Below are positions 1,951 to 39,575 of a stretch of DNA of 64,000 bases, piece after piece. The stretch lies in the NCBI GenBank assembly GCA_041651155.1, contig JBAZJU010000002.1, positions 21,467 to 85,466 of the forward strand. Reading direction: 5' to 3'. The stretch is from Patescibacteria group bacterium (lineage in GTDB: Bacteria > Patescibacteriota > Patescibacteriia > CAIXNZ01). Made by a program: the position numbers and the translations under genes. Below the pieces are notes generated by a model. The model was not told the origin of the DNA. It made no database searches and worked only from the letters and a program-made list of their open reading frames with translations. Numbering within the stretch: position 1 is the first letter of the stretch; each line of letters begins with the position of its first letter.

Positions 1951-2440
1951 TCGGCCAGATAGCTCGTCTCGGCTGGGCAGACAAGCTTTTCTGTTATTAT
2001 AAAATTACATCCGAGCCGAAGCCGGGTAAGGCAGAGGTCTGCCGGCCTCCGCAAATTAAAATTATGGCCTGATAGCCAAGTAGTAAGGCAAGGGTCTGCC
2101 TGCCTTCGCAAATTATGGTCTGGTAGCCAAGCAGTAAGGCAGAGGTCTGCAAAACCTCTATACATGGGTGCAATTCCCATCCAGACCTAAAGACGTTGTT
2201 TGCTACGGCAGGTCAAAATCTAAGGTCCTCCGTAGCTCTTAGAGCGTAGGAGGACAAAACCCTTATGCGTGGGTGCAACTCCCACTCAGGCCTCCATGTA
2301 AATTTGCTTCGGCCAGTCAATATCTATTTAGATCCTCCGAAGCTCCGTAGGAGCGAAGGCGGACAAAACCTCTATGCAGAGTGCCTGCCCTCCATAGTTT
2401 TAACGAAGGAGGGCAACTCCCACTCAGGCCTAAAGCGTTA
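1951..2440 (+). repeat. cluster of tRNA-Cys-derived partial copies (three 5' units, two 3'-half units) with hairpin insertions
   Basis: Repeated GGYCTGRTAGCCAAGYAGTAAGGCAGRGGTCTGC units and repeated ...GTGGGTGCAACTCCCACTCAGGCC units. The minus-strand ORF 1926..2180 shows the internal repeats expected of this DNA. Confidence 0.6.
2117..2188 (+). tRNA. tRNA-Cys(GCA)-like gene, the only complete copy in the cluster
   Basis: Acceptor GGTCTGG/CCAGACC; anticodon stem GAGGT/ACCTC with loop CTGCAAA (GCA); T-arm ATGGG-TGCAATT-CCCAT; discriminator T. The D-loop lacks GG and T-loop position 55 is G, so it is atypical. Confidence 0.55.
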
Positions 2441-4256: not shown

Positions 4257-5705
4257 TTAAAATAAATTTTTATAAATCGTCTTAACTATCTGCAAATATT
4301 TAGGCTTTAATTGCCCATTACTTTGTAAAATATTTCTCTTAAACAAAGCGTGCGTAATACGAGCCAAACGGCTCCATTTTTTTATTATAGTTTTCTTTTT
4401 AGGCACTCCATCAACTAAAATAAAATCATTATCGCTTTTTAAATCATCGTAAAAGATTGCCTCTTTTTTAAAAATAATCGTTTTATTTTTAGGGTTAAAA
4501 TTATAAACTCCGACTTCCAGTTCGTTTTTTACAATTAAATCGTAATCTTTGGTATTGGATAAAACAAGGTGACTGCCAGAAATTGGCTTTTGATACATTT
4601 TATTTAATTGGCTTACATTAATCTTATAAGGAATATCCAAAAATTCTAAAAAATGAAAAAAATCCATGGGAATAATTTTATATTTCAAATGAATCATGGA
4701 TAAAATGGGAAACGCCCCAGTATAACGCGCATTACATTCAACCAGATAAACTTTATTGGCTTTTTGATTAACAATCAAGTCAATGCCAAAAATTCCTTTA
4801 TAGCCTTGCTTGTACATATGCTTGCCCAATCCTTGAGCAATCACTTGTGATTGTTTAACAATTTTGGCATTTAATTCTGACCCAAAAACATGGCCGCAAA
4901 AAAGCCCGTTGCCTTTCTTGGGAGAAATCACTTGAGGTATATCAATAATCTGCCTTTGAATTTTAGAAACCAAAGTCCCGTACTTAGTAGCGCAACAAGC
5001 CACGCTACAGCTTAAACCAGTAATAAATCTTGTAACATTCACTAGAGTTAAAACCTTGCCATGGAATTTCCCTTCTTTAATCTGGGCTTTAAATTTTTTA
5101 AACTCTTTCTCATTTTTTATAAATAAAGTCCCTTTGCCGCCGCCTAGCATAAAATCTGGAAGTTGAATTACAAATTTAGGGCCATATTTTTTTCTGAAAA
5201 ATTTATAATCTTTACTATAAAATTCTGAGAATTCAAAAATATTGCCCGCAATCGGTTTTATTCCTACCTTATCCATAACTTTTCTAAAACTCGCCTTGTT
5301 TTCAAAAATTTTATTTACCTTTGACTTATTGGCGATTATTTCTACGCCTAACGGCCTGACAGCATTTTGGATATTATTATTAGATCTGTATAAAAATAAA
5401 ATTTTCTTTCCTTCAAAGTTAGCGATATAATTCCTCACTGTTTTATTGCGTAAAAGATTATTGGCGTTTGAAAACTTTAATTTTATATTGGGCTTTCTTT
5501 TTTTTAAACAAAAAATGTCAGCATATTTTTCCAGAACTTTATTATCCTTTGAATCTTTAAAAGTAATGACTTTAAAATTTTTTAAAAAAAGCCCAGGGAA
5601 AAAACGCATAAAGGCAGTCACGCCCACGCCAAAAACAGTCGCTTTGGGATTTAATTTTTTCTCTAAAAATCTGGAGAAATCTTGATAAGTTTTTATATTT
5701 AACAT
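4257..5705 (-). CDS. ATP-grasp domain protein with ~230-aa N-terminal extension
   Basis: FCGHVFG..GIFGIDLIVNQKANKVYLVECNAR ATP-grasp core; 5 nt downstream of the next gene start, same strand, so probably an operon. Confidence 0.55.
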   Translation of the reverse strand: MLNIKTYQDFSRFLEKKLNPKATVFGVGVTAFMRFFPGLFLKNFKVITFKDSKDNKVLEKYADIFCLKKRKPNIKLKFSNANNLLRNKTVRNYIANFEGKKILFLYRSNNNIQNAVRPLGVEIIANKSKVNKIFENKASFRKVMDKVGIKPIAGNIFEFSEFYSKDYKFFRKKYGPKFVIQLPDFMLGGGKGTLFIKNEKEFKKFKAQIKEGKFHGKVLTLVNVTRFITGLSCSVACCATKYGTLVSKIQRQIIDIPQVISPKKGNGLFCGHVFGSELNAKIVKQSQVIAQGLGKHMYKQGYKGIFGIDLIVNQKANKVYLVECNARYTGAFPILSMIHLKYKIIPMDFFHFLEFLDIPYKINVSQLNKMYQKPISGSHLVLSNTKDYDLIVKNELEVGVYNFNPKNKTIIFKKEAIFYDDLKSDNDFILVDGVPKKKTIIKKWSRLARITHALFKRNILQSNGQLKPKYLQIVKTIYKNLF

Positions 5706-5819
5706 GTCTTTATTTTAACAAAAAATATGCCTTTTTAAAAGCAGAAAAAAGTGATAGAATGAAGATGTTACAAATATACAAATCAAATACAAATTATTAC
5801 AAATATTAATAAGGGTATT

Positions 5820-6263
5820 ATGACAAATAAAGTGATTTATCCAGAATTATCTTATGAAATAGTGGGTGTTTTATTTGATGTTTATAATGAACTGGGTTAT
5901 GGTTACCAAGAAAAATATTATGACAGTGCTGTGGCAAAGGCCTTAGATTTGAAGCATATCAGATTTAAGCGGCAAGTGCCTTTTGATGTAAAATATAAAG
6001 ACAATAAAATTGGTAAAGGAATACTTGATTTTTTAATTGAAGATAAAATCGTATTAGAATTAAAAATCGGAAAATATTTTACTAAACAAAGTTTTAATCA
6101 GGTAAAAGGCTATCTTAAATCCACTAATAAAAAATTGGCAATCATGGCTATTTTTACTCCTAAAGGTGTTAGGTTTATTAGAATCTTAAATGAAAATAAT
6201 AAAATTAGTAAAAATGAAACAGAAATAAACCTTAATAAAGTTAGAGAATTATTCAAATATTAA
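5820..6263 (+). CDS. GxxExxY (PDDEXK_3) family protein
   Basis: N-terminus LSYEIVGVLFDVYNELGYGYQEKYY matches the GxxExxY signature. Confidence 0.7.
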   Translation: MTNKVIYPELSYEIVGVLFDVYNELGYGYQEKYYDSAVAKALDLKHIRFKRQVPFDVKYKDNKIGKGILDFLIEDKIVLELKIGKYFTKQSFNQVKGYLKSTNKKLAIMAIFTPKGVRFIRILNENNKISKNETEINLNKVRELFKY

Positions 6264-16673: not shown

Positions 16674-16728
16674 AAAATATAGGCTAATATTAGCAATAAA
16701 AGTGTTAATTTACTATAAATAAATAAGT

Positions 16729-16815
16729 CCCTGTAGTTTCCGCCCAAGGCGGATCAGCCTGTCTTGGCCAAGGCCAGGCCTCTGGCTGACAACGGATACA
16801 CTGACAATTAAATAA
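16729..16815 (+). repeat. 5' fragment duplicate of tRNA-Arg fused to a GC-rich hairpin element
   Basis: aaataagtccctgtagtt repeats the tRNA start and is followed by ccgcccaaggcggatcagcct...ggctgaca. Confidence 0.6.
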
Positions 16816-16887
16816 GTCCCCGTAGTTCAACGGATAGAACGAGAGACTCCTAAGCTCTAGATAGAGGTTCGATTCCTCTCGGGGACA
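16816..16887 (+). tRNA. tRNA-Arg(CCT)
   Basis: Acceptor GTCCCCG/CGGGGAC, D-arm GTTCAACGGATAGAAC, anticodon loop CTCCTAA, T-arm AGAGG-TTCGATT-CCTCT. Confidence 0.85.
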
Positions 16888-17001
16888 TATTTTGGCCTTA
16901 TAGCTCTGCCAGCCGGAGTACATTCAGAGTGGGAGAGCTAAAGGGCTCAAGTCCTTATGGTCAAAATATAAAATTTTGCTTTAAAATGAATATGCTAAAA
17001 T

Positions 17002-17289: not shown

Positions 17290-17580
17290 TAATATGGCTA
17301 TTTAGCTCCCACCTATGCACCTTTGGAGCTCCGGCTGGCAGGCAACCCTAAAATGACACCATTTGTGGATGTTTATCCTATTTTTACTAAGGGCAATTAG
17401 CTCCAGCCTAAAAGGGCCCCTTTGGGGCTGGTTAGAGCGTACGATTCACACCTGCCTGCCGTAGTATATAAATTCTAAAAATTATTAGCAAATATGGCCA
17501 TTTAGCTCACACCTACGCATACGCTTCGGCGGGCAGGCAGTTGGCTAGAGCGCTTCATTCACACCTGTCCGCCGAAATTA
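17290..17580 (+). repeat. three degenerate 5'-half copies of tRNA-Val with GC-rich hairpin insertions
   Basis: Each copy runs GGC(Y)ATTTAGCTC[insertion]..GTTAGAGCG..TTCACACC(TG) and stops just past the anticodon loop. Confidence 0.6.
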
Positions 17581-17581
17581 T

Positions 17582-17655
17582 GGGATTATAGCTCAGTTGG
17601 TCAGAGCGTACGGTTCACATCCGTAAGGTCAGAGGTTCAAGTCCTCTTAATCCCA
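17582..17655 (+). tRNA. tRNA-Val(CAC)
   Basis: GGGATTA..TAATCCC acceptor, anticodon loop TTCACAT, T-arm AGAGG-TTCAAGT-CCTCT. Confidence 0.85.
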
Positions 17656-17894
17656 ATACTTATGAAGGCGGATTGAAGAGGTCGCAGATTCAAGCCCTGC
17701 AATGGCCATACGAAGGCAGGTTCGTAAGGTCACTGGTTCAAACCCAGTATTGCCCACCTTTGTCCTACGAAGCTTTAGACGGTCGGTCTTCGGCCTTTAC
17801 AGACGGAAGTCGGCTACTGAGCCGACGAATGTCGTTAAGCACAGCCCACAAAACAACATTATTACTTATTACTAATTACTTATTACTAATTTAC

Positions 17895-21245: not shown

Positions 21246-21803
21246 ATGAATAAATTTGATTTTGTCTTAGAGGAAATTAAAACGCTTACTAAAAATGCAA
21301 CGGACAAAACTGAGTACGATCATTCGCAGTCGGTTTGGCAGTGGGTTCTAAAACTTAAACCAGATGCGGACATTGCACTTCAAATCGCCGCCCTAGGCCA
21401 TGATATCGATAGAAGTTTTGAAGACTACCGAAAAATGAAGGCAAAATTTTCGACTTATGATGAATATAAAAAAGAGCACGCCTTATTATCCGCCAAAATA
21501 ATGTGTGATATACTAAAAAAACATAATTTTGACGAAACCACGATAGACAAGGTTAGGCACTTGATTGAAAATCACGAAATTGGCGGCGAGGGCGATGTTG
21601 AAATATTAATGGAAGCTGACAGTATCACGTTTTTTAACGATTTGCCACATTATCGCCAGACACATACTCAAGAAGAGACGACAGACAAAATCAAATTTAT
21701 GTACGATAGATTGAACGACAAAGCAAAATCAATGGTTAATCAGATAGATTTCAAAAATGCAGAATCCGCAAAATTATTTAAGGAAGCGATAAATAGTAAA
21801 TGA
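21246..21803 (+). CDS. HD-domain phosphohydrolase
   Basis: ALGHDIDR HD motif; start moved to the internal Met because the ORF N-terminus runs through a GC palindrome. Confidence 0.65.
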   Translation: MNKFDFVLEEIKTLTKNATDKTEYDHSQSVWQWVLKLKPDADIALQIAALGHDIDRSFEDYRKMKAKFSTYDEYKKEHALLSAKIMCDILKKHNFDETTIDKVRHLIENHEIGGEGDVEILMEADSITFFNDLPHYRQTHTQEETTDKIKFMYDRLNDKAKSMVNQIDFKNAESAKLFKEAINSK

Positions 21804-22023
21804 TTTTTTTCTGTCAACGCCCAAATTTCACTTCATTTCATTCAGTGAAACTTCAGATAGCCCGAAACGTTATATGAAACATGCTTTTCTTTTTACGGCT
21901 AACCTGCCGGCAGGCAGGCAGGCGCCTAACAATTTTCTTTGCGCGAATCTTGCGCGAATCTTGCGCGAACCGCTATTTTGTGATATAATGCCAGCGTAGT
22001 CTAAAAAATCCATACTTCATAAT

Positions 22024-23079
22024 ATGTTCAATCCGCAGTACAAGCTAACAAATAAAATTTTAACGAATATTACTGCCATTGCCGAGGCCAAAGGTATTAT
22101 TGAACGTGCCAAAATTTTACCCCAAAAAGAAATAAAATTGCGCCGGCAAGCCATTATCCGCATGACCCACCACTCTACCGAGATTGAGGGCAATCAATTA
22201 AACATGGGGCAGGTAGAAGCGCTTTATGCTAAAAAAAAAGTAGATGCGCCGGATCGGGATGTTTATGAAGTTAAAAATTATTTAAACGCTCTAAAATACA
22301 TAGAAAAAATTGCAGCTGATAAAAAACCGATATCTGAAAAAGTGATTTTAAAAATTCATAAATTAGTAACGGATAAAACCTTGGCTCCGCAATTTTCCGG
22401 CCGCTACCGACCAGGGCCAATTTATGTGGTGCGACGGCAGTTCGGCGTACCGCAAGAAACCCTATATACCGGGCCGGAAGCCAAACAGGTGCCAAAACTC
22501 ATGGCTGATTTTACTGCTTGGCTTAAAGATAGCGAAGCAAAAGAAATAAATCCGGTGATTGTGGCCGGGATTGCCCATTTGGAACTGGCTGCTATTCATC
22601 CGTTTAATGATGGCAATGGCCGTACCGCTCGCGCCTTGGCCACGCTAATGCTTTATCAAAGAGGATATGACTTCCGTCGCTTATTTGCTTTGGAAGATTA
22701 TTATAATACCAATAGACAAGCGTATTATAAAGCCATTAACGTGGGAAAAACGTATGACGAGCGGCGCACGGATATTACTTCGTGGCTCGAATATTTTATC
22801 AAAGGATTTAAAAAGGAAATTGATGAGGTGAAAAATAGGATTTTGCCATTATCCAACCGTCATATTGATGGAAAAATCAAGTCGCAAATTTACCTTACCC
22901 CTGAACAACTAAAAATTATTGATTTTTTGGATCAAGTCGGCCGTATTGCCGTCAAGGATGTAGAGGATGTTTTATCCTGCCCGCGCAGATCGGCACAATT
23001 GCAATTACAAAAATTGAAAAAGATCAAGATGATTAAGGCAACAGGTAAAGGAAAAAATACTGCTTATATTGCCAATTAA
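22024..23079 (+). CDS. Fic family protein (class II, internal inhibitory motif) with C-terminal wHTH
   Basis: HPFNDGNGRTARA Fic motif and N-terminal STEIEGN inhibitory motif. Confidence 0.9.
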   Translation: MFNPQYKLTNKILTNITAIAEAKGIIERAKILPQKEIKLRRQAIIRMTHHSTEIEGNQLNMGQVEALYAKKKVDAPDRDVYEVKNYLNALKYIEKIAADKKPISEKVILKIHKLVTDKTLAPQFSGRYRPGPIYVVRRQFGVPQETLYTGPEAKQVPKLMADFTAWLKDSEAKEINPVIVAGIAHLELAAIHPFNDGNGRTARALATLMLYQRGYDFRRLFALEDYYNTNRQAYYKAINVGKTYDERRTDITSWLEYFIKGFKKEIDEVKNRILPLSNRHIDGKIKSQIYLTPEQLKIIDFLDQVGRIAVKDVEDVLSCPRRSAQLQLQKLKKIKMIKATGKGKNTAYIAN

Positions 23080-23385
23080 AAGCGATATGGCTACAGTTTG
23101 CATTTGCCCATTTAATTCCCCTCCGCCCTTCCCGCCAGAGGCGGACACAGCGTCCAACCTGCCTGCCGGCAGGCAGGAACGGAAAAAGAAAAGTATAGCT
23201 GGCTACCCCTTCGACTCCGCTTCGTTCCGCTCAGGGTCCGCCCATATTGTTCGTCTTAAGATAATCAAGATATACTATAAATAACTAATTCAAAACGAAC
23301 AACATCAGATATCCCGAAACGTTATCGGAAATTTTATTTGCCCTTAATTTTATTTTAATTTTACCCTTTTAATCTAAATTTTAAT

Positions 23386-24849
23386 ATGCTAATTAACATA
23401 CATTTAAATCCCAAAGTAGCTGAAATAAAAGACCAAGAAGAAAAGTTCGATACCCTTATTTCGCCATCAAGCACCGTGGCGACTTTGCTTAATATTGAAA
23501 AGGAATTAGGGCGAAATGACATCATTGGAATTGATGAAGCATTTCCTGGCGAAGCTGAAACAAAAAATAAAATCAGAAGATTAATCGAAAACGATATAAG
23601 TGAAGGGAAAATTACCGCTCTACTTTTCACTTTATTACTTTACAATTCTGAACGCACGCTAAAATATATTGAAGAATTAAAACATGTATTCGGCGAAAAG
23701 ATAAAAATTATAATCGGCGGGCAGCTCGTCCCATTGGCGCGCGAAGCATATTTGAAAAATAAAAATATTGATGCGGTTTGTGTGGGCGACGCCGAGAAAA
23801 TCCTGCCAGAATTATTAAGAGATTTAGAAGTTGGAAATTTAAAAGGAGAATATGCGGGCTGGGTTATGAATGAAAAAGAGAAAAAGTTTTCTGGCGTTTC
23901 ATTTGATCATTTTTGGCAAATAAAAGAACGAATGGAGACGCAAAAAAAGGAAGTTGGATTTTCTCAGCTTACTATTCAGGGGCCTGGTGGTCCAGGATGC
24001 GCTTGGGCAATTTCTAGCATGAAAGGGCCATGCTCATTTTGCTCTTTGCAAAATGTTGAGGTGAAAAGCGAAATGACAATTGAGGAATATTTGGAAAACG
24101 AGAGAGTTCTTGAGCAACAATTTCATCCCGACCGTTTTTATGATGTTGCCAATCAATTTATACCATCTGTAAGTCCACATGAAAAAGTTGAATGGCTCAA
24201 AAAATATATTGAAATAAGAAAAGCCAAAGGCATAAAAGCTGAAAAATATGCTTATCTAACAGTTCCATCGGTCGATGCTGAAGTTGCTGAATTATTAAAA
24301 GAAGCTGGAATTTCAGAAGTGTATTTGGGAATCGACCATTTTAGCGAAGAGGCATTAAAGCAAGAAAATAAGTCATTTCGCAAAAGAGAGACTTTGGAAA
24401 AATGTCTAAATGCGCTCAAATCAAATGGAATAAGTTTTAGAGCAGGAATTGTTTTAGGCTCTGCCGAAGAAAGCTTGGAAACTTTAGAATCTGTACGAAA
24501 TGGAGTAAGATGGATGACAGAAAACTATAGGGATATAATAAAAGCAGTTGGAATTTTTCCAATTGAAATGCTACCAGGCTCGAAAGATTTTGAAAAAATG
24601 CGAGAAGCTGGACTTTGTCCTGGATTATTTGTGAAATTTGATGAAAGTGGATACTTATCACGAGATGAGCAAAGAGAAATGACAAATAGCTGGATTGATA
24701 GCCATAGCAATGTTTCAGCAAAAGAAGTTAGAGAATTTGAAACAGAAATGTTTGATTATCTAAAAAGCGAAGGTGTGTTTGGTTATAGTGTAGACAGGAA
24801 ACCAGAGCAGGCCAATGAATTTAAAGGGGTTGAGGGAAAATTAAAATAA
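23386..24849 (+). CDS. B12-binding-domain / radical-SAM-like protein with degenerate Cys motif
   Basis: N-terminal IIIGGQLVPLAREAYLKNKNIDAVCVGDAEKILPELL cobalamin-binding-like fold; core has KGPCSFC rather than CxxxCxxC. Confidence 0.5.
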   Translation: MLINIHLNPKVAEIKDQEEKFDTLISPSSTVATLLNIEKELGRNDIIGIDEAFPGEAETKNKIRRLIENDISEGKITALLFTLLLYNSERTLKYIEELKHVFGEKIKIIIGGQLVPLAREAYLKNKNIDAVCVGDAEKILPELLRDLEVGNLKGEYAGWVMNEKEKKFSGVSFDHFWQIKERMETQKKEVGFSQLTIQGPGGPGCAWAISSMKGPCSFCSLQNVEVKSEMTIEEYLENERVLEQQFHPDRFYDVANQFIPSVSPHEKVEWLKKYIEIRKAKGIKAEKYAYLTVPSVDAEVAELLKEAGISEVYLGIDHFSEEALKQENKSFRKRETLEKCLNALKSNGISFRAGIVLGSAEESLETLESVRNGVRWMTENYRDIIKAVGIFPIEMLPGSKDFEKMREAGLCPGLFVKFDESGYLSRDEQREMTNSWIDSHSNVSAKEVREFETEMFDYLKSEGVFGYSVDRKPEQANEFKGVEGKLK

Positions 24850-30010: not shown

Positions 30011-30126
30011 TTATATTATTTTTCCTATCCCTAATACTTATTTCTCGTCTCGGCTAAGTTTTCCTTCCGTGTTAATTTATCTAAAAGTTACAGAGCCGAA
30101 GCCGGACATATTTCTTATTTCCAATC

Positions 30127-34866: not shown

Positions 34867-34940
34867 AAGCGGGTGACCGGAATCGAACCGGCATCTCGAC
34901 CTTGGAAGGGTCGCATACTAACCATTGTACTACACCCGCC
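34867..34940 (-). tRNA. tRNA-Gly(TCC)
   Basis: Minus-strand GGCGGGT..anticodon arm CGACC-CTTCCAA-GGTCG..T-arm GCCGG-TTCGATT-CCGGT. Confidence 0.85.
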
Positions 34941-34983
34941 CAGATAAAAGTTTGTGCATTTAAAGCTTCAACCTTCTTTTATC

Positions 34984-35216
34984 TCAGCTAGAGAAAAAAT
35001 GGTTTAAACGAATCATCCATAAACTTTTATCTGGGCACGCAGTTATTTTATTTTCTTTTCCCGATTTATTTAAATATTCGGAAAGCATTGTCCTCAAAGT
35101 CGTTTTACCCTTGGTTGTCTTAAAATACTTTTCTCGTCTCAAGGCATCTGATTTATTTAAATATGCTTCGTAAAAAATCAAATCTAACGGCCGCCTATAT
35201 TTAGTTGAGGGACATC
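34984..35216 (-). pseudogene. N-terminally truncated GIY-YIG nuclease-family (UPF0213/YhbQ-like) remnant
   Basis: STKYRRPLDLIFYEAYLNKSDALRREKYFKTTKGK parallels the C-terminal half of ORF 36017..36283; in-frame stops remove the GIY half. Confidence 0.5.
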
Positions 35217-35420
35217 ACCATCATGATGTCTTTTTGTTCTTTCCGTGATGTTAGCGGTAAATCCAATATAAAAATTTTTATCTTTTTGAGATAACAAAAT
35301 GTATGTATAGTAAAACATATTCTGGGGTTAAGGCCATGCACCAGGCGGTGCACGACCATAAACCATTTACCTTACAGTAATGACGGACTCAAGACCCGCC
35401 ATAAACCGCATGGTTTATGG

Positions 35421-35494
35421 TCGGGCTGGTGGGACTTGAACCCACGATCTTCTGGTCCCAAACCAGACGCGATAGCCAACTTCGCTACAGCCCG
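35421..35494 (-). tRNA. tRNA-Pro(TGG)
   Basis: CGGGCTG..anticodon arm TCTGG-TTTGGGA-CCAGA..T-arm GTGGG-TTCAAGT-CCCAC..CAGCCCG-A; downstream hairpin ccataaaccgcatggtttatgg. Confidence 0.85.
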
Positions 35495-35639
35495 TAAATT
35501 ATTTTAAGATAGCCTCCGCCAGAGACTGGTCAGCCTTTGGCTGAAACTTCTCTACGGCCCGTTATTATTAATTACTAATCTTCAATAATTAATTTTCAAA
35601 AATTATAAATTGAAAATTGAGCATTGAAAATTCTAATTG

Positions 35640-35894
35640 TGCCTGGGGGCAGAATCGAACTGCCAACCTGCCTGCCGGCAGGCAGGCGCAAGGCTACGAA
35701 CCACTCACTTCGTTCGGGTGCATGGTAAATTTTTCAGCCTGCCCTGCACTAAAAATTTACTATTGCCGAAGGGCAGAATCGAACTGCCAACGCAAGGATT
35801 TTCAGTCCTTCGCTCTACCACTGAGCTACTTCGGCTCATTTGTATAATATTTTTTAGTGCAGGGTCCTTCGCTCTACCACTGAGCTACCCAGGC
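35640..35894 (-). pseudogene. disrupted tRNA-Phe-like gene split by nested insertions (outer gene)
   Basis: 5' half GCCTGGGTAGCTCAGTGGTAGAGCGAAGGAC at 35894-35864 and 3' part CCTTGCG[CCTGCCTGCCGGCAGGCAGG]TTGGCAGTTCGATTCTGCCCCCAGGCA at 35694-35641, interrupted by an intact tRNA-Phe flanked by 15-bp inverted repeats. Confidence 0.55.
35764..35835 (-). tRNA. tRNA-Phe(GAA), intact, nested inside the disrupted copy
   Basis: GCCGAAG-TA-GCTCAGTGGTAGAGC-G-AAGGA-CTGAAAA-TCCTT-GCGTT-GGCAG-TTCGATT-CTGCC-CTTCGGC-A. Confidence 0.85.
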
Positions 35895-36016
35895 CCGATA
35901 AAAGTCTGCGTATTTAATGGATAAACAATTATTTAACCGCTGATCAATTTAAAATGTTGAACCAAATAATACCTAAACTTTTATCGGGCCAGAGGCCTTT
36001 ATATTATATTTAGCCT

Positions 36017-36310: not shown

Positions 36311-36384
36311 TGGACGTAGATGGACTTGAACCATCGACCTCGTCATTATCAGTGACGCGCTCTAACCAACTGAGCTATACGTCC
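36311..36384 (-). tRNA. tRNA-Ile(GAT)
   Basis: GGACGTA-TA-GCTCAGTTGGTTAGAGC-G-CGTCA-CTGATAA-TGACG-AGGTC-GATGG-TTCAAGT-CCATC-TACGTCC-A, immediately 3' of the 16S. Confidence 0.85.
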
Positions 36385-36688
36385 CGATAAAAGTCTGCGT
36401 ATTTTATCATTATATGCGGACTTTATCTACAATAAACAAACTACATTTTTTCTAAATTTTACATAAACTTTTATCGGGACACGTCCTAAAAAAATTTTTA
36501 GCTTGATAAACCAATTTTATCAAAAAAGACTGGCTCAATCAAGATCTAAAAGTTGATATTAACTAAGCCAGTCTTTTTAAATTGAGCCTTAACGCCTAAA
36601 AAGTGATAGAATCGTCGTCTGCCTCAAGGTTGAGGCTCGACCGATAGAGTAAAGGGCCTTTACGGTCATTTTACTCAAATACTCCCTA

Positions 36689-38190
<1,502 letters not shown>

Positions 38191-38584
38191 ATGTGATATT
38201 AAAGTATATCACGGACTTATTGTAGAAGTTTTAAACTTCAAATGATTTGACGATTCTATCACTTTTTAGTTGTCAAAGCTTCGCCTTGAATTTCTAATTC
38301 TTGATTTTTGTAAATCTCGAGCGAAGTCCCGAGTCCCGCTACGCGGGACGAGGGATCCATTCCTTCTTTTTTTAAAGAAAGAAAAAAACAGGGAAATCCA
38401 TTGTCTTTTTAAATTATCCCGCTCCGCGGGATTTTTAATAGATTGAATTTGCCTGTTTTTTTCTCCTCCCTTCGACTCGCTCCGCTCGCTCAGGGCAAAG
38501 CCCTTGCCAATATTCTTGCGACCAAGGATATCATCGAAAAAATAAATTTTATTAAGAGTAATTGAAAATTTTAAAGGTTATTTT

Positions 38585-38620: not shown

Positions 38621-39575
38621 GTCAAGGGGTTGTTATGGTTCAATACCTTTGCACCACCCTGTGGTAAGCTTGGGTATATGCCATACACTATGAATCCAAA
38701 ATTACCGCGTCTGCGCATGCAGACTGCGAAGCTCGTATTAAAACAAGGTTGGAGTACGCGACAAGCTGCCAGATATACAGGATTTGACCACAGCACTATT
38801 GTCCGTTGGGTTAAGAAAGCAAGGTTAAGTAACAAACGGATTATTCCCACTGAAAGTTCACGCCCTAATCATCATCCCTTAGCCATTTCACACAAAATTG
38901 TCAGTGCAATTTTAGGGCATCGGGACAAGTATCATCGGTGTGCTGAAGTTATCCATTATCAATTAAACAAAGACGGTATTGTTGTAAGTTTGTCTTCTGT
39001 TAAAAGAACGCTAAAACGTTATGGCCTAATTTACCCGAGCAAATGGAAAAAGTGGCATGTTTATCCGCCTCGTCCAATAGCTGAAAAACCTGGGGTTTTA
39101 GTTGAAATTGACTCAATGCAGGAAGGTTTGCCTGCAGAACATTTACACCTCTATGCCTTAATTGATACCTGTTCTCGCTGGGGATTTGCCAAGCCGGTAA
39201 AAATAGTTAATTCCTGGCAAAGCGCCAAGTTCTTTCTAGAGGCTAAGGATAAAGCATTATTTACTTTCCGTATGATCCAATCAGACAATGGAAGTGAATT
39301 CGCCAAGTGGTTTAACAAACAACTGTTGGCTTCGGGAATTGAACATCGCCATTCTCGGGTAAGAAGACCGACGGACAACGGGCACGTTGAAAGATTTATT
39401 CGGACCATACAGCAAGAGTGTTTAGCCCGAAATCCTAGAAGTTTTAAAGCTTGGCAAAAAGCTATTCCTGAATTTATTAATTATTACAATACCGAGCGTC
39501 CACACATGGGGATTAACATGAAAACACCCCTTGAAGTGGTGCGAAGCTATTGACCAGAAAACAGGGGTTTTTTGG
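38610..39575 (+). mobile_element. IS481-family insertion sequence (approximate ends)
   Basis: Transposase ORF with HTH and rve DDE core. Imperfect terminal inverted repeats TGTTATGGTTCAATACC (left) and GCTATTGACCAGAAAACA (right), the latter overlapping the stop codon. Confidence 0.7.
38678..39553 (+). CDS. IS481-family DDE transposase
   Basis: N-terminal HTH (STRQAARYTGFDHSTIVRW) and integrase core with D..D..E (VEIDSM...QSDNGSEF...ERFIRT). Confidence 0.8.
   Translation: MPYTMNPKLPRLRMQTAKLVLKQGWSTRQAARYTGFDHSTIVRWVKKARLSNKRIIPTESSRPNHHPLAISHKIVSAILGHRDKYHRCAEVIHYQLNKDGIVVSLSSVKRTLKRYGLIYPSKWKKWHVYPPRPIAEKPGVLVEIDSMQEGLPAEHLHLYALIDTCSRWGFAKPVKIVNSWQSAKFFLEAKDKALFTFRMIQSDNGSEFAKWFNKQLLASGIEHRHSRVRRPTDNGHVERFIRTIQQECLARNPRSFKAWQKAIPEFINYYNTERPHMGINMKTPLEVVRSY

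Follow-up and report, generated by a model that had tools for sequence, protein, structure and literature searches.

How can one short bacterial locus come to contain three beginnings and two ends of a single tRNA gene? The question is raised by positions 1953-2431 of a 64,000-nucleotide stretch of DNA, referred to below as the window, from contig JBAZJU010000002.1 of a Patescibacteria group bacterium. The upstream gene has a terminator-like hairpin (1921-1943), and the next open reading frame (ORF) lies at 2490; in between, 479 bases derive from tRNA-Cys. They comprise three 5' units and two 3' halves, including one intact tRNA-Cys(GCA) at 2117-2188. The pieces form a concentric nest. Comparable nests surround other tRNAs and occur in further genomes, inner and outer copies being of one isoacceptor in every case; some of the outer copies, which we call shells, are decaying; and related loci are associated with genes for GIY-YIG nucleases. 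We think it probable that the nests arose by serial insertion of cassettes that carry a replacement tRNA, likely mobilised by Ssn-like GIY-YIG nucleases, and that the outer shells are relics.

A tRNA-Cys gene within two broken copies

The pieces lie in the order 5' half 1, 5' half 2, intact gene, 3' half 2, 3' half 1 (coordinates of all features are collected in Table 1). The sequence-only reading of this DNA had drawn up the same inventory and correctly derived it from tRNA-Cys; its boundaries needed only slight correction, to those given above. It had also suggested permuted or recombined fragments; the order is co-linear and strictly nested. Both shells are split at one site (CTG / insert / CAAA, anticodon-loop position 34/35), and the insert in each layer has complementary arms and holds the next tRNA-Cys inward. 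The outermost shell is called layer 1 and the next one layer 2, and the inserts that break them are cassettes 1 and 2. The right arms of the two cassettes are homologous, and a repeat search resolves the Cys units into direct-repeat families D1-D6 with 64-88% identity. When the tRNA-Cys was compared by BLAST with the whole window, Cys fragments were confined to this locus.

Stem complementarity can be used to assign the 3' halves to their partners. The TCAGGCC-T ends of the 3' halves pair at 7/7 positions with the GGCCTGA start of layer 2 and at 6/7 with the GGCCAGA start of layer 1; the earlier view that assigned the orphan 3' halves to upstream 5' units, and not to their own flanks, was right. 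Counted over the stems, nested partners pair at 12/12 and 11/12 positions and crossed partners at 11/12 and 10/12. By itself this is modest evidence; the pairing is settled by the order of the pieces and by the parallel nests of tRNA-Val and tRNA-Phe described below. For tRNA-Val, acceptor and anticodon stems match at 12/12 positions between nested partners and at 7/12 between crossed ones. The minimum-free-energy (MFE) fold of 1954-2432 consists of concentric cloverleaves joined via the arm helices (-178 kcal/mol; z = -5.6 against mononucleotide shuffles). The arm helices and hairpins retain 3x3 internal loops that are symmetric and follow the pattern GNA/GNA (GTA/GTA, GAA/GAA), each placed between an outer stem rich in GC and an inner stem.

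The innermost copy is called tRNA-Cys GCA by ARAGORN and matches the Rfam tRNA family (RF00005) with 62.4 bits (E = 4e-11, gathering threshold 29). It has the canonical bacterial cloverleaf, with a 7-bp acceptor stem, an anticodon arm and a T arm. The usual elbow signature, G18 G19 / U54 U55 C56, is altered to A18 G19 and U54 G55 C56 (T-loop UGCAAUU), and the normal G18/U55 elbow contact of tRNAs is replaced by A18/G55. The sequence-only reading had recognised both that this is the only complete tRNA of the cluster and that its T-loop (TGCAATT) and GG-less D-loop are unusual, and had offered a non-canonical tRNA or a pseudogene as explanations. G55 is common to all three Cys layers and to the Cys copies of a relative, L083; A18 G19 is found in both copies that have kept an intact D-loop (layer 2 and the inner tRNA); and the tRNA-Cys of another relative, L031, is canonical. 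The Rfam score and the shared G55 favour the first of the two explanations over the second, and speak for a working, co-varying tRNA of lineage-specific form. It is presumably the only functional Cys copy.

The D-loop of layer 1 is interrupted by a 62-nt hairpin element. The sequence-only reading had noticed this element and its second copy 3' of recA, which with corrected coordinates lies at 30044-30105. The two copies have identical 12- and 13-nt ends and different interiors, and related copies occur in L083; the element is dispersed rather than bound to tRNA genes.

Two more assemblies of this organism, ENA contig L001 and Logan contig L002, carry the whole Cys locus in identical form. In a promoter and terminator scan of 1800-2600, site numbers did not exceed those in shuffles; its sole items were a TATAAT at 1944-1949, directly before layer 1, and the upstream terminator-like hairpin. 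No Pfam match to an integrase or recombinase was found within 10 kb of the locus.

Nests and displaced fragments at other tRNA genes

The sequence-only reading had missed that the window also contains nests of tRNA-Val and tRNA-Phe, displaced 5' fragments of tRNA-Arg and tRNA-Pro, and a link of these features with GIY-YIG genes and GC-rich hairpins. The tRNA-Val(CAC) gene at 17582-17655 (+) lies inside two shells, each broken at 37/38 and each with a D-loop insert. ARAGORN additionally calls a 93-nt 'tRNA-Cys(GCA)' at 17666-17758; this call is spurious, being built of two orphan tRNA-Val 3' halves, and Rfam does not return it. The shell around tRNA-Phe(GAA) is broken at 31/32 and has two additional inserts, one of them the perfect palindrome CCTGCCTGCCGGCAGGCAGG. 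Its acceptor stem (GCCTGGG/CCCAGGC) differs from the inner one (GCCGAAG/CTTCGGC) at three positions per strand, with pairing kept.

The intact tRNA-Arg (16816-16887, +) lies directly downstream of its displaced 5' fragment. The intact tRNA-Pro (35418-35494, -) likewise has a displaced fragment upstream, and the D-stems of gene and fragment differ by compensating changes. Both fragments contain GC hairpins of 15-36 nt. Hairpin inserts of displaced fragments are found in stems too, unlike the breaks that hold an inner tRNA. These hairpins might serve to break up a direct repeat able to delete the nuclease gene, they might be recognition repeats of the nuclease, or they might simply be dispersed mini-elements. 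Just 3' of tRNA-Arg, at 16894-16963, is a tRNA-like sequence with an acceptor-like stem, a D-stem with a 28-nt insert and a T-arm-like hairpin; an anticodon arm is missing, and the sequence probably represents a further ruined tRNA gene.

The cassettes resemble one another across tRNA types. Left arms of the Cys and Val cassettes have CCKGYC..CGMAAATTAT in common, abutting the tRNA, and their right ends have GAAGGCRGG; CCCYGYACTAAAA-type arms are common to the cassettes of Phe in the window, Ala in L128 and Ala in L025. Helix-terminated CCYGCC..GGCRGG pairs number 20 in the window and 0-4 in shuffles. Hairpins of the CCYGCC type are weakly enriched within 200 nt of tRNAs (6/91, versus 1.7% of the sequence; p = 0.004), and because most are located elsewhere they are not tRNA-specific. 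Each type of tRNA is broken at its own fixed site: both Cys breaks are at 34/35, both Val breaks at 37/38, and the Phe breaks of the window and of L006 at 31/32.

Similar structures are present in relatives. The window holds a full-length bacterial 16S gene (36690-38191), and its RecA is 70-84% identical to those of metagenome-assembled genomes of Falkow-, Magasanik-, Buchanan- and Uhrbacteria, members of the Candidate Phyla Radiation (CPR, or Patescibacteria), and this assigns the window to the same group of ultra-small bacteria. In independent assemblies, tRNA-Ala(GGC) is nested in tRNA-Ala(GGC) in L025, where the outer copy looks intact, and tRNA-Ala in tRNA-Ala in L128, where the outer copy has lost a recognisable anticodon loop. 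The outer tRNA-Ser of L087 is truncated, and 3' pieces in L084 are degenerate. Upstream of intact tRNA genes for Ser, Leu, His, Gln and Phe, relatives also have a 5' fragment of the gene in question. In every nest and fragment, shell and intact copy are of the same isoacceptor. Shells are infrequent, occurring at just 2-3 of the 39 tRNAs in a RecA-anchored sample. When orphan T-arms were sought in about 1.5 Mb of CPR DNA, no tRNA turned up that was interrupted and had no intact copy nearby; apart from chance matches, each shell found in this way lay around or beside an intact gene of the same isoacceptor.

The condition of the shells was assessed by removing the inserts in silico and running the joined exons through ARAGORN. 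Cys layer 2 then reads as a perfect tRNA-Cys (junction AAGGGTCTG to CAAAACCCTT) and Val shell ii as a perfect tRNA (junction GATTCACA to TTCGTAAGG); with the outer tRNA-Ala of L025, these are the shells whose joined exons are complete and undamaged. Layer 1 of Cys is not recognised as a tRNA: part of its D-loop is lost, a T-stem strand reads AGAG versus GTGGG, and there is an A5.A68 mismatch. Val shell iii has an A53.C61 mismatch at a position where G53-C61 is near-universal in tRNAs, the Phe shell is one base short in the anticodon arm, and the L128 shell is also defective. Fresh and decayed shells together are the expected look of relics of differing ages.

Several further structured sequences were seen. 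The 20-nt palindrome of the Phe shell also occurs between genes at 23158-23177, with a variant at 21903-21922. These copies sit in GC-rich intergenic patches of an AT-rich genome (23080-23250 and 21880-21970) along with other small hairpins, and an 11-nt unit, CTTGCGCGAAT, is present in three tandem copies at about 21929-21962; Rfam gave no match over 21700-23400 at E up to 1. A hairpin of about 45 nt with the conserved interior CACGCAAGACAAGCTTGCGAGGCGTTGCGG is found in distant metagenomes (L137 505-555, L170 412-461, L006, L161 and L162), located within displaced 5' fragments of tRNAs or separating a GIY-YIG gene from a tRNA, once in an IMG/VR 'viral' contig; it matches no Rfam family. In L006 (12143-12560), an exact repeat of the last 19 nt of tRNA-Pro follows 325 nt after the gene, with a structured GC-rich stretch between; this insertion, which affects the T-loop or the 3' end, is of another kind. 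An IS481-like DDE transposase gene with rve and helix-turn-helix domains (38630-39553) adjoins the 16S gene, and its ends are unlike those of the cassettes.

Table 1. Positions of nest components, repeat elements and nuclease genes in the window
Feature	Position	Strand	Repeat family, source or context
Cys layer 1 (outermost shell), 5' unit overall; D-loop interrupted by 62-nt hairpin element	1953-2041	+	
Cys layer 1, 5' exon a: acceptor 5' strand GGCCAGA and D-arm start	1953-1963	+	
62-nt hairpin element within layer 1 D-loop, ends TCGTCTCGGCT ... GAGCCGAAGCCGG	1964-2025	+	
Cys layer 1, 5' exon b: D-stem 3' strand, anticodon stem GAGGT, CTG (break 34/35)	2026-2041	+	direct repeat D1
Cassette 1 left arm CCGGCCTCCGCAAATTAAAATTAT, pairs with 2300-2316	2042-2065	+	inverted repeat I1
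Cys layer 2, 5' half, GGCCTGA ... AGGGT CTG	2066-2098	+	direct repeat D3
Cassette 2 left arm CCTGCCTTCGCAAATTAT, pairs with 2199-2212	2099-2116	+	
Intact tRNA-Cys(GCA), innermost copy, atypical elbow (A18, G55)	2117-2188	+	ARAGORN, Rfam
Cassette 2 right arm: trailer, arm partner TTTGCTACGGCAGG (2199-2212), 13-nt linker, hairpin 2226-2254	2189-2254	+	I3
Hairpin of cassette 2 right arm, TCCTCC-GTA-GCTC-TTA-GAGC-GTA-GGAGGA	2226-2254	+	
Cys layer 2, 3' half, CAAA ACCCT ... TCAGGCC T	2255-2293	+	direct repeat D4
Cassette 1 right arm: arm partner 2300-2316, linker, hairpin 2333-2363	2294-2363	+	D5, D6, I1
Cys layer 1, 3' part overall, interrupted by 30-nt hairpin	2364-2431	+	
Cys layer 1, 3' exon a: CAAA ACCTC TATGC, then damaged T-stem strand	2364-2383	+	
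30-nt hairpin element within layer 1 T arm, CCTGCCCTCC ... GGAGGG	2384-2413	+	I4
Cys layer 1, 3' exon b: CAACT CCCAC TCAGGCC T	2414-2431	+	direct repeat D2
Second copy of 62-nt element	30044-30105	+	intergenic, 3' of recA
3x3 internal-loop sites	2226-2254; 2333-2363; 17564-17581 with 17656-17672		
tRNA-Val(CAC) nest overall	17391-17756	+	
Val shell ii	17391-17450 and 17721-17756	+	
Val shell iii	17496-17563 and 17673-17708	+	
Val cassette arms	17451-17495, 17564-17581, 17656-17672, 17709-17720	+	
Val D-loop inserts	17407-17427, 17510-17538	+	
Further Val 5' fragment	start 17296	+	
tRNA-Phe(GAA) nest overall	35640-35894	-	
Outer Phe shell, 5' part	35865-35894	-	
Phe arms CCCTGCACTAAAAA / TTTTTAGTGCAGGG, perfect, 14 nt	within 35836-35864 and 35738-35763	-	
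Intact tRNA-Phe	35764-35835	-	
Outer Phe shell, 3' part, with inserts 35694-35730 and 20-nt palindrome 35667-35686	35640-35737	-	
Displaced tRNA-Arg 5' fragment with two GC hairpins (16739-16753, 16754-16789)	16727-16798	+	
Displaced tRNA-Pro 5' fragment with hairpin TCAGCC-AAA-GGCTGA (35530-35544)	35519-35561	-	
Single-domain GIY-YIG nuclease gene, 88 aa	36017-36283	-	Pfam GIY-YIG 5.5e-12; between tRNA-Ile and Phe nest
Frameshifted GIY-YIG pseudogene	35043-35318	-	between tRNA-Gly remnant and current tRNA-Gly

GIY-YIG nuclease genes and the tRNA-Gly locus

The intact GIY-YIG gene of the window has the size and single-domain make-up of an Ssn-type nuclease (about 90 aa), and its homologues in relatives, at 78-90 aa, likewise consist of the catalytic domain alone. 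PDB relatives of the window protein are labelled UPF0213. NCBIfam offers no name for the nuclease; for one of the proteins it gives no more than a 'group I intron endonuclease' match below threshold.

A metagenome search with four GIY-YIG proteins yielded 80 loci. A tRNA on the same strand begins between -3 and +260 nt after the ORF at 14/80 of them, and within 30 nt of the stop codon at 12/80, the tRNAs including Phe, Val, His, Ser, Gln and Leu. At most of the 14 loci, a 5' fragment of the same tRNA stands just before the ORF. The stop codon abuts the tRNA in L084 and lies inside it in L150. In L084, one hairpin pair also appears as direct repeats on both sides of the GIY-YIG gene and tRNA-Ser (5335-5412 and 5796-5872), and its terminal base pairs are swapped with compensation (TCCGCTCA..TGAGCGGA versus CCCGCTCA..TGAGCGGG, and CCCGCCCA..TGGGCGGG versus TCCGCCCA..TGGGCGGA), pairing being kept. 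Viral contigs contributed just two GIY-YIG relatives, one followed by a hairpin and tRNA-Lys, which is too little to implicate phages.

The nuclease ORFs are often enclosed by repeats: 38 of the 74 testable loci have inverted repeats of 12-20 nt tightly bracketing the ORF, while shuffles mostly gave 10 nt or less and at most 12. The repeat consensus is CCCCGTTAGAAA, CCCGTACGAAAT or GCCTGTGAAATA, and the arms of the tRNA cassettes resemble it (CCCCGTACTAAAA in L128, CCCTGCACTAAAAA for Phe in the window, and CCTGYC..CGMAAATTAT for Cys and Val). A TGA or TGAA direct repeat is often seen just outside the inverted repeats (L124, L128, L165, L103 and others); it may represent a duplicated target, or else a preference for stop codons as targets. 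In the window, a module of about 100 nt is present in three copies on the minus strand (36381-36480, 35892-35990 and 34938-35036), directly 5' of tRNA-Ile, the outer tRNA-Phe and tRNA-Gly. Its arms are (G)CCCGATAAAAGT ... ACTTTTATCGGG(C), the right arm overlapping the first bases of the tRNA, and the modules look like ORF-less kin of the repeat-bracketed GIY-YIG elements.

Ssn proteins (Chenal et al. 2025) are single-domain GIY-YIG nucleases that cut single-stranded DNA site-specifically next to hairpin repeats; the repeats (NTS/SRM) flank the gene itself in a repeat-gene-repeat layout like that of an insertion sequence (IS) and are scattered through the genome (PMC11893778). A stand-alone GIY-YIG domain of about 90 aa, a repeat-bracketed gene and dispersed related hairpins are all found here as well. 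SRM-like repeats (GTCATTCC...GGAATGAC) flank homologues at three of the sampled CPR loci, L039, L030 and L065. There are also differences. tRNA genes go unmentioned in the Ssn report (PMC11893778), whereas here a GIY-YIG subfamily stands directly 5' of tRNA genes with displaced fragments or nested shells; the repeats here are of the CCCCGTTAGAAA and CCYGCC..GGCRGG types and differ from NTS/SRM, and the window protein is 31% identical to one SRM-flanked homologue.

A second point of comparison is SegB of phage T4, a free-standing GIY-YIG homing endonuclease in a tRNA gene cluster, which by cutting a tRNA gene region drives preferential inheritance of itself and neighbouring tRNA genes (PMC2330249). 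Common to both is a GIY-YIG gene among tRNA genes, and the adjacency seen at 12/80 loci, with a displaced fragment of the same tRNA upstream, could be a sign of homing. SegB differs in being a larger, phage-borne enzyme that cuts double-stranded DNA; it brings about gene conversion when phages co-infect, and neither nested nor displaced halves of tRNAs remain after it. SegB and I-TevI join a catalytic domain to a sequence-specific DNA-binding domain, and the proteins described here have the catalytic domain only.

A probable displacement can be followed at tRNA-Gly, by comparing 35375-35417 of the window with 211-291 of L003, the closest available relative (RecA 84% identical). In L003, tRNA-Phe, tRNA-Pro, an 8-nt spacer (TAAACCAT) and tRNA-Gly follow in a row. 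In the window, tRNA-Pro is followed by the same spacer, then by GCGG and a degenerate T-arm-like stretch (35375-35417, -), which is probably the decayed remnant of the ancestral tRNA-Gly. Next come the frameshifted GIY-YIG gene, the inverted-repeat module of about 100 nt and, 435 nt beyond the remnant, the current tRNA-Gly (34867-34940, -), whose stems are quite different. The resident tRNA-Gly thus appears to have been displaced by a foreign allele that came with the nuclease gene.

At the position of the Cys locus, more distant relatives have a GIY-YIG gene and tRNA-Ser before homologues of the downstream ORF, with a hairpin-studded tRNA-Ser 5' fragment upstream of the nuclease. The contig of L083, the closest relative by that ORF, begins inside similar Cys debris.

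Origin of the nests and its implications

On the account that we favour, the Cys cluster would be the record of two successive insertions into a tRNA-Cys gene. Each cassette, of about 150-320 bp, would have entered the resident gene between 34 and 35, bringing complementary arms with CCYGCC ... GGCRGG ends and its own complete tRNA-Cys and leaving no obvious target duplication. The resident gene would thereby be split into 5' and 3' shells, and the cargo tRNA would assume its function. Layer 2 would then be a recently disabled shell, and layer 1 an older, decaying one that later gained more hairpin elements.

The cassettes may be members, or non-autonomous derivatives, of IS-like elements built around Ssn-type GIY-YIG nucleases. 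Such a nuclease, encoded by the cassette or acting in trans, would cut the tRNA gene, perhaps while the gene is single-stranded and folded with its loops exposed. Insertion would occur at the DNA level, either by homing and break repair from a cassette donor or by cutting and ligation of single-stranded DNA at the exposed parts; the fixed site for each tRNA type is compatible with homing via flanking shell homology. Only insertions that bring the matching tRNA would survive, because the target gene is essential and probably single-copy. The whole nest is probably transcribed as one precursor, in which paired arms and shell halves would fold together with the inner cloverleaf undisturbed at the tip, to be freed by RNase P and 3' processing.

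Several observations weigh against this account. GIY-YIG nucleases hydrolyse DNA and cannot join it, which leaves the ligation or repair step unexplained. Since no GIY-YIG gene lies inside or adjoining the Cys or Val cassettes, mobilisation of these cassettes in trans is deduced; and since no empty-site or simpler Cys allele was found among the homologues of the downstream ORF, so is insertion at the Cys locus itself. The breaks that hold an inner tRNA are in loops or at loop edges (34/35, 37/38, 31/32, D-loop), as in tolerated introns, and the three best-preserved shells are flawless after splicing in silico. The 3' half of layer 2 is 39/39 identical to copies in L083, even though the neighbouring protein is just 75% identical, and this identity could reflect constraint rather than youth. 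Finally, the conserved 3x3 loops hint at a structure read as RNA or single-stranded DNA and not at plain terminal inverted repeats.

Alternatively, the shells could be dead as tRNAs and nonetheless kept, with the nested fold acting as a processing or folding scaffold, which might help the inner tRNA to mature correctly, or as a decoy that might soak up anticodon nucleases, or Ssn-type nucleases that act on incoming DNA. The strength of the predicted nested fold fits such a role, as do the compensating changes of terminal pairs between hairpin copies in L084 (Ea/Ea' and Eb/Eb'), the recurrence of GC hairpins in displaced fragments at many independent loci, and the finding that Ssn/NTS repeats modulate Neisseria transformation (PMC11893778). 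We nevertheless consider it unlikely: most tRNAs in related genomes do without shells, the content and completeness of shells vary widely, and conservation is limited to the tRNA-derived pieces and the short arm ends.

A further possibility is that the inserts are true introns, or the shells split-tRNA halves, in which case the inner tRNA would be excised and the arm-paired outer halves trimmed and ligated, by a protein endonuclease and an RtcB-type ligase, to give several Cys and Val isodecoders as in Archaea. Archaeal tRNA genes may be disrupted by multiple introns, split, tri-split or permuted (PMC3218864, PMC4033280, PMC2237900). Like the genes described here, they are broken in the D-loop, the anticodon loop or the variable loop, their halves can be brought together by complementary sequences, and the inserts behave as mobile sequences common to different tRNAs. 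The perfect cloverleaves of Cys layer 2, Val ii and the L025 Ala shell, the position of the breaks in loops, the arm helix at or near the exon ends and the fully kept layer 2 3' half in L083 all speak for splicing. The archaeal genes, however, depend on a bulge-helix-bulge and EndA, and the disrupted gene is the functional one. In this bacterium, inspection and the MFE fold show no bulge-helix-bulge (3-nt bulge, 4-bp helix, 3-nt bulge) at any exon-intron junction; the helices extend to the exon ends with no 3-nt bulge. Every shell or fragment found has an intact copy of its isoacceptor beside or inside it, several shells are defective, and most relatives have a truncated 5' fragment whose 3' partner is absent. 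The scan for orphan T-arms produced no lone interrupted tRNA, and the same hairpin elements occur in intergenic DNA too.

Self-splicing group I introns do occur in anticodon loops of bacterial tRNAs (PMC3984707), as these insertions do, and theirs sometimes bring a homing endonuclease. Rfam, however, detected no group I ribozyme over 1700-2700, at the gathering score or at E up to 10, and at eight related loci, at E up to 0.1, it found tRNAs alone; without the tRNA that they carry, the inserts are too short for a ribozyme core. No other ribozyme, nor any known RNA family besides tRNA, was detected. Splicing of the shells strikes us as distinctly improbable, and there is only a slim chance that the three that look undamaged (Cys layer 2, Val ii and L025 Ala) are still expressed, as the first bacterial tRNA introns that are not self-splicing. 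If they were, each locus would give several isodecoders, a bacterial counterpart of archaeal split and intron-containing tRNAs and a living model of their origin.

Integrative elements also leave tRNA fragments, and the pieces could in principle be att remnants of island or prophage integration into tRNA-Cys followed by excision. Partial tRNA genes were reportedly traced to integrase-mediated integration by Williams in 2002. Such partial copies, left by islands and prophages, are common in prokaryotes (PMC9897764). There too a tRNA gene is targeted, its function is restored by the element's own partial copy, and a fragment is left behind. Integrase elements, though, are kilobases long and encode an integrase; they restore the 3' (rarely the 5') part of the gene and leave one fragment at the far end. 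Here the element measures 0.1-0.3 kb, a whole tRNA is carried with both halves around it, the fragments are concentric within 480 bp, and there is no integrase gene within 10 kb. Inner and outer copies moreover differ by compensating changes, unlike identical att repeats, and we regard this origin as very improbable. An assembly artefact, in which tRNA-Cys variants of different strains were collapsed or chained, is scarcely credible: the contigs are assembled from metagenomes and those of relatives often break at such loci (L003, L083), but the locus is identical in three assemblies, the same architecture appears with unique arm sequences in unrelated projects (L025, L128), and variant chaining would not be expected to produce arms, hairpins and nested complementarity.

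Insertion of replacement cassettes, the account that we prefer, has partial parallels in fungal mitochondria. There, free-standing endonuclease genes bring a duplicate of the end of the host gene, as in Allomyces atp6, and double-hairpin elements are known. Yeast mitochondrial GC clusters are mobile GC-rich hairpins in an AT-rich genome (PMC4478555). As in our window, GC-rich palindromes pepper an AT-rich genome and gather around endonuclease genes, and part of a host gene is displaced and replaced. Unlike here, the mitochondrial cases are organellar and concern protein-coding genes, and the end of a gene is replaced rather than a whole nested gene.

The separate ingredients thus have precedents: tRNA-targeting elements that restore their target, SegB, Ssn repeats, GC clusters and archaeal disrupted tRNAs. 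In the literature searched, we found no description of tRNA-in-tRNA nests or of a linkage between GIY-YIG genes and tRNAs in CPR bacteria; a whole replacement tRNA inside its predecessor, in two or three layers and for many isoacceptors, was not found described.

If the account is right, the nests would exemplify a route by which a selfish element can persist: in one step, an essential and probably single-copy gene is destroyed and its sole working replacement is brought in. Such an element could not be lost without precise reversal, because its cargo is the only working replacement, and repeated hits would produce concentric gene fossils. In practical terms, nests give rise to false tRNA calls, such as the one beside tRNA-Val, and hide gene histories. 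For the CPR, Ssn-type GIY-YIG nucleases and their hairpin repeats would be tied to the turnover and horizontal replacement of tRNA genes. The same process would also offer a concrete, DNA-level route to tRNA genes split into complementary halves, and so bears on the debate about the origin of split and intron-containing tRNAs.

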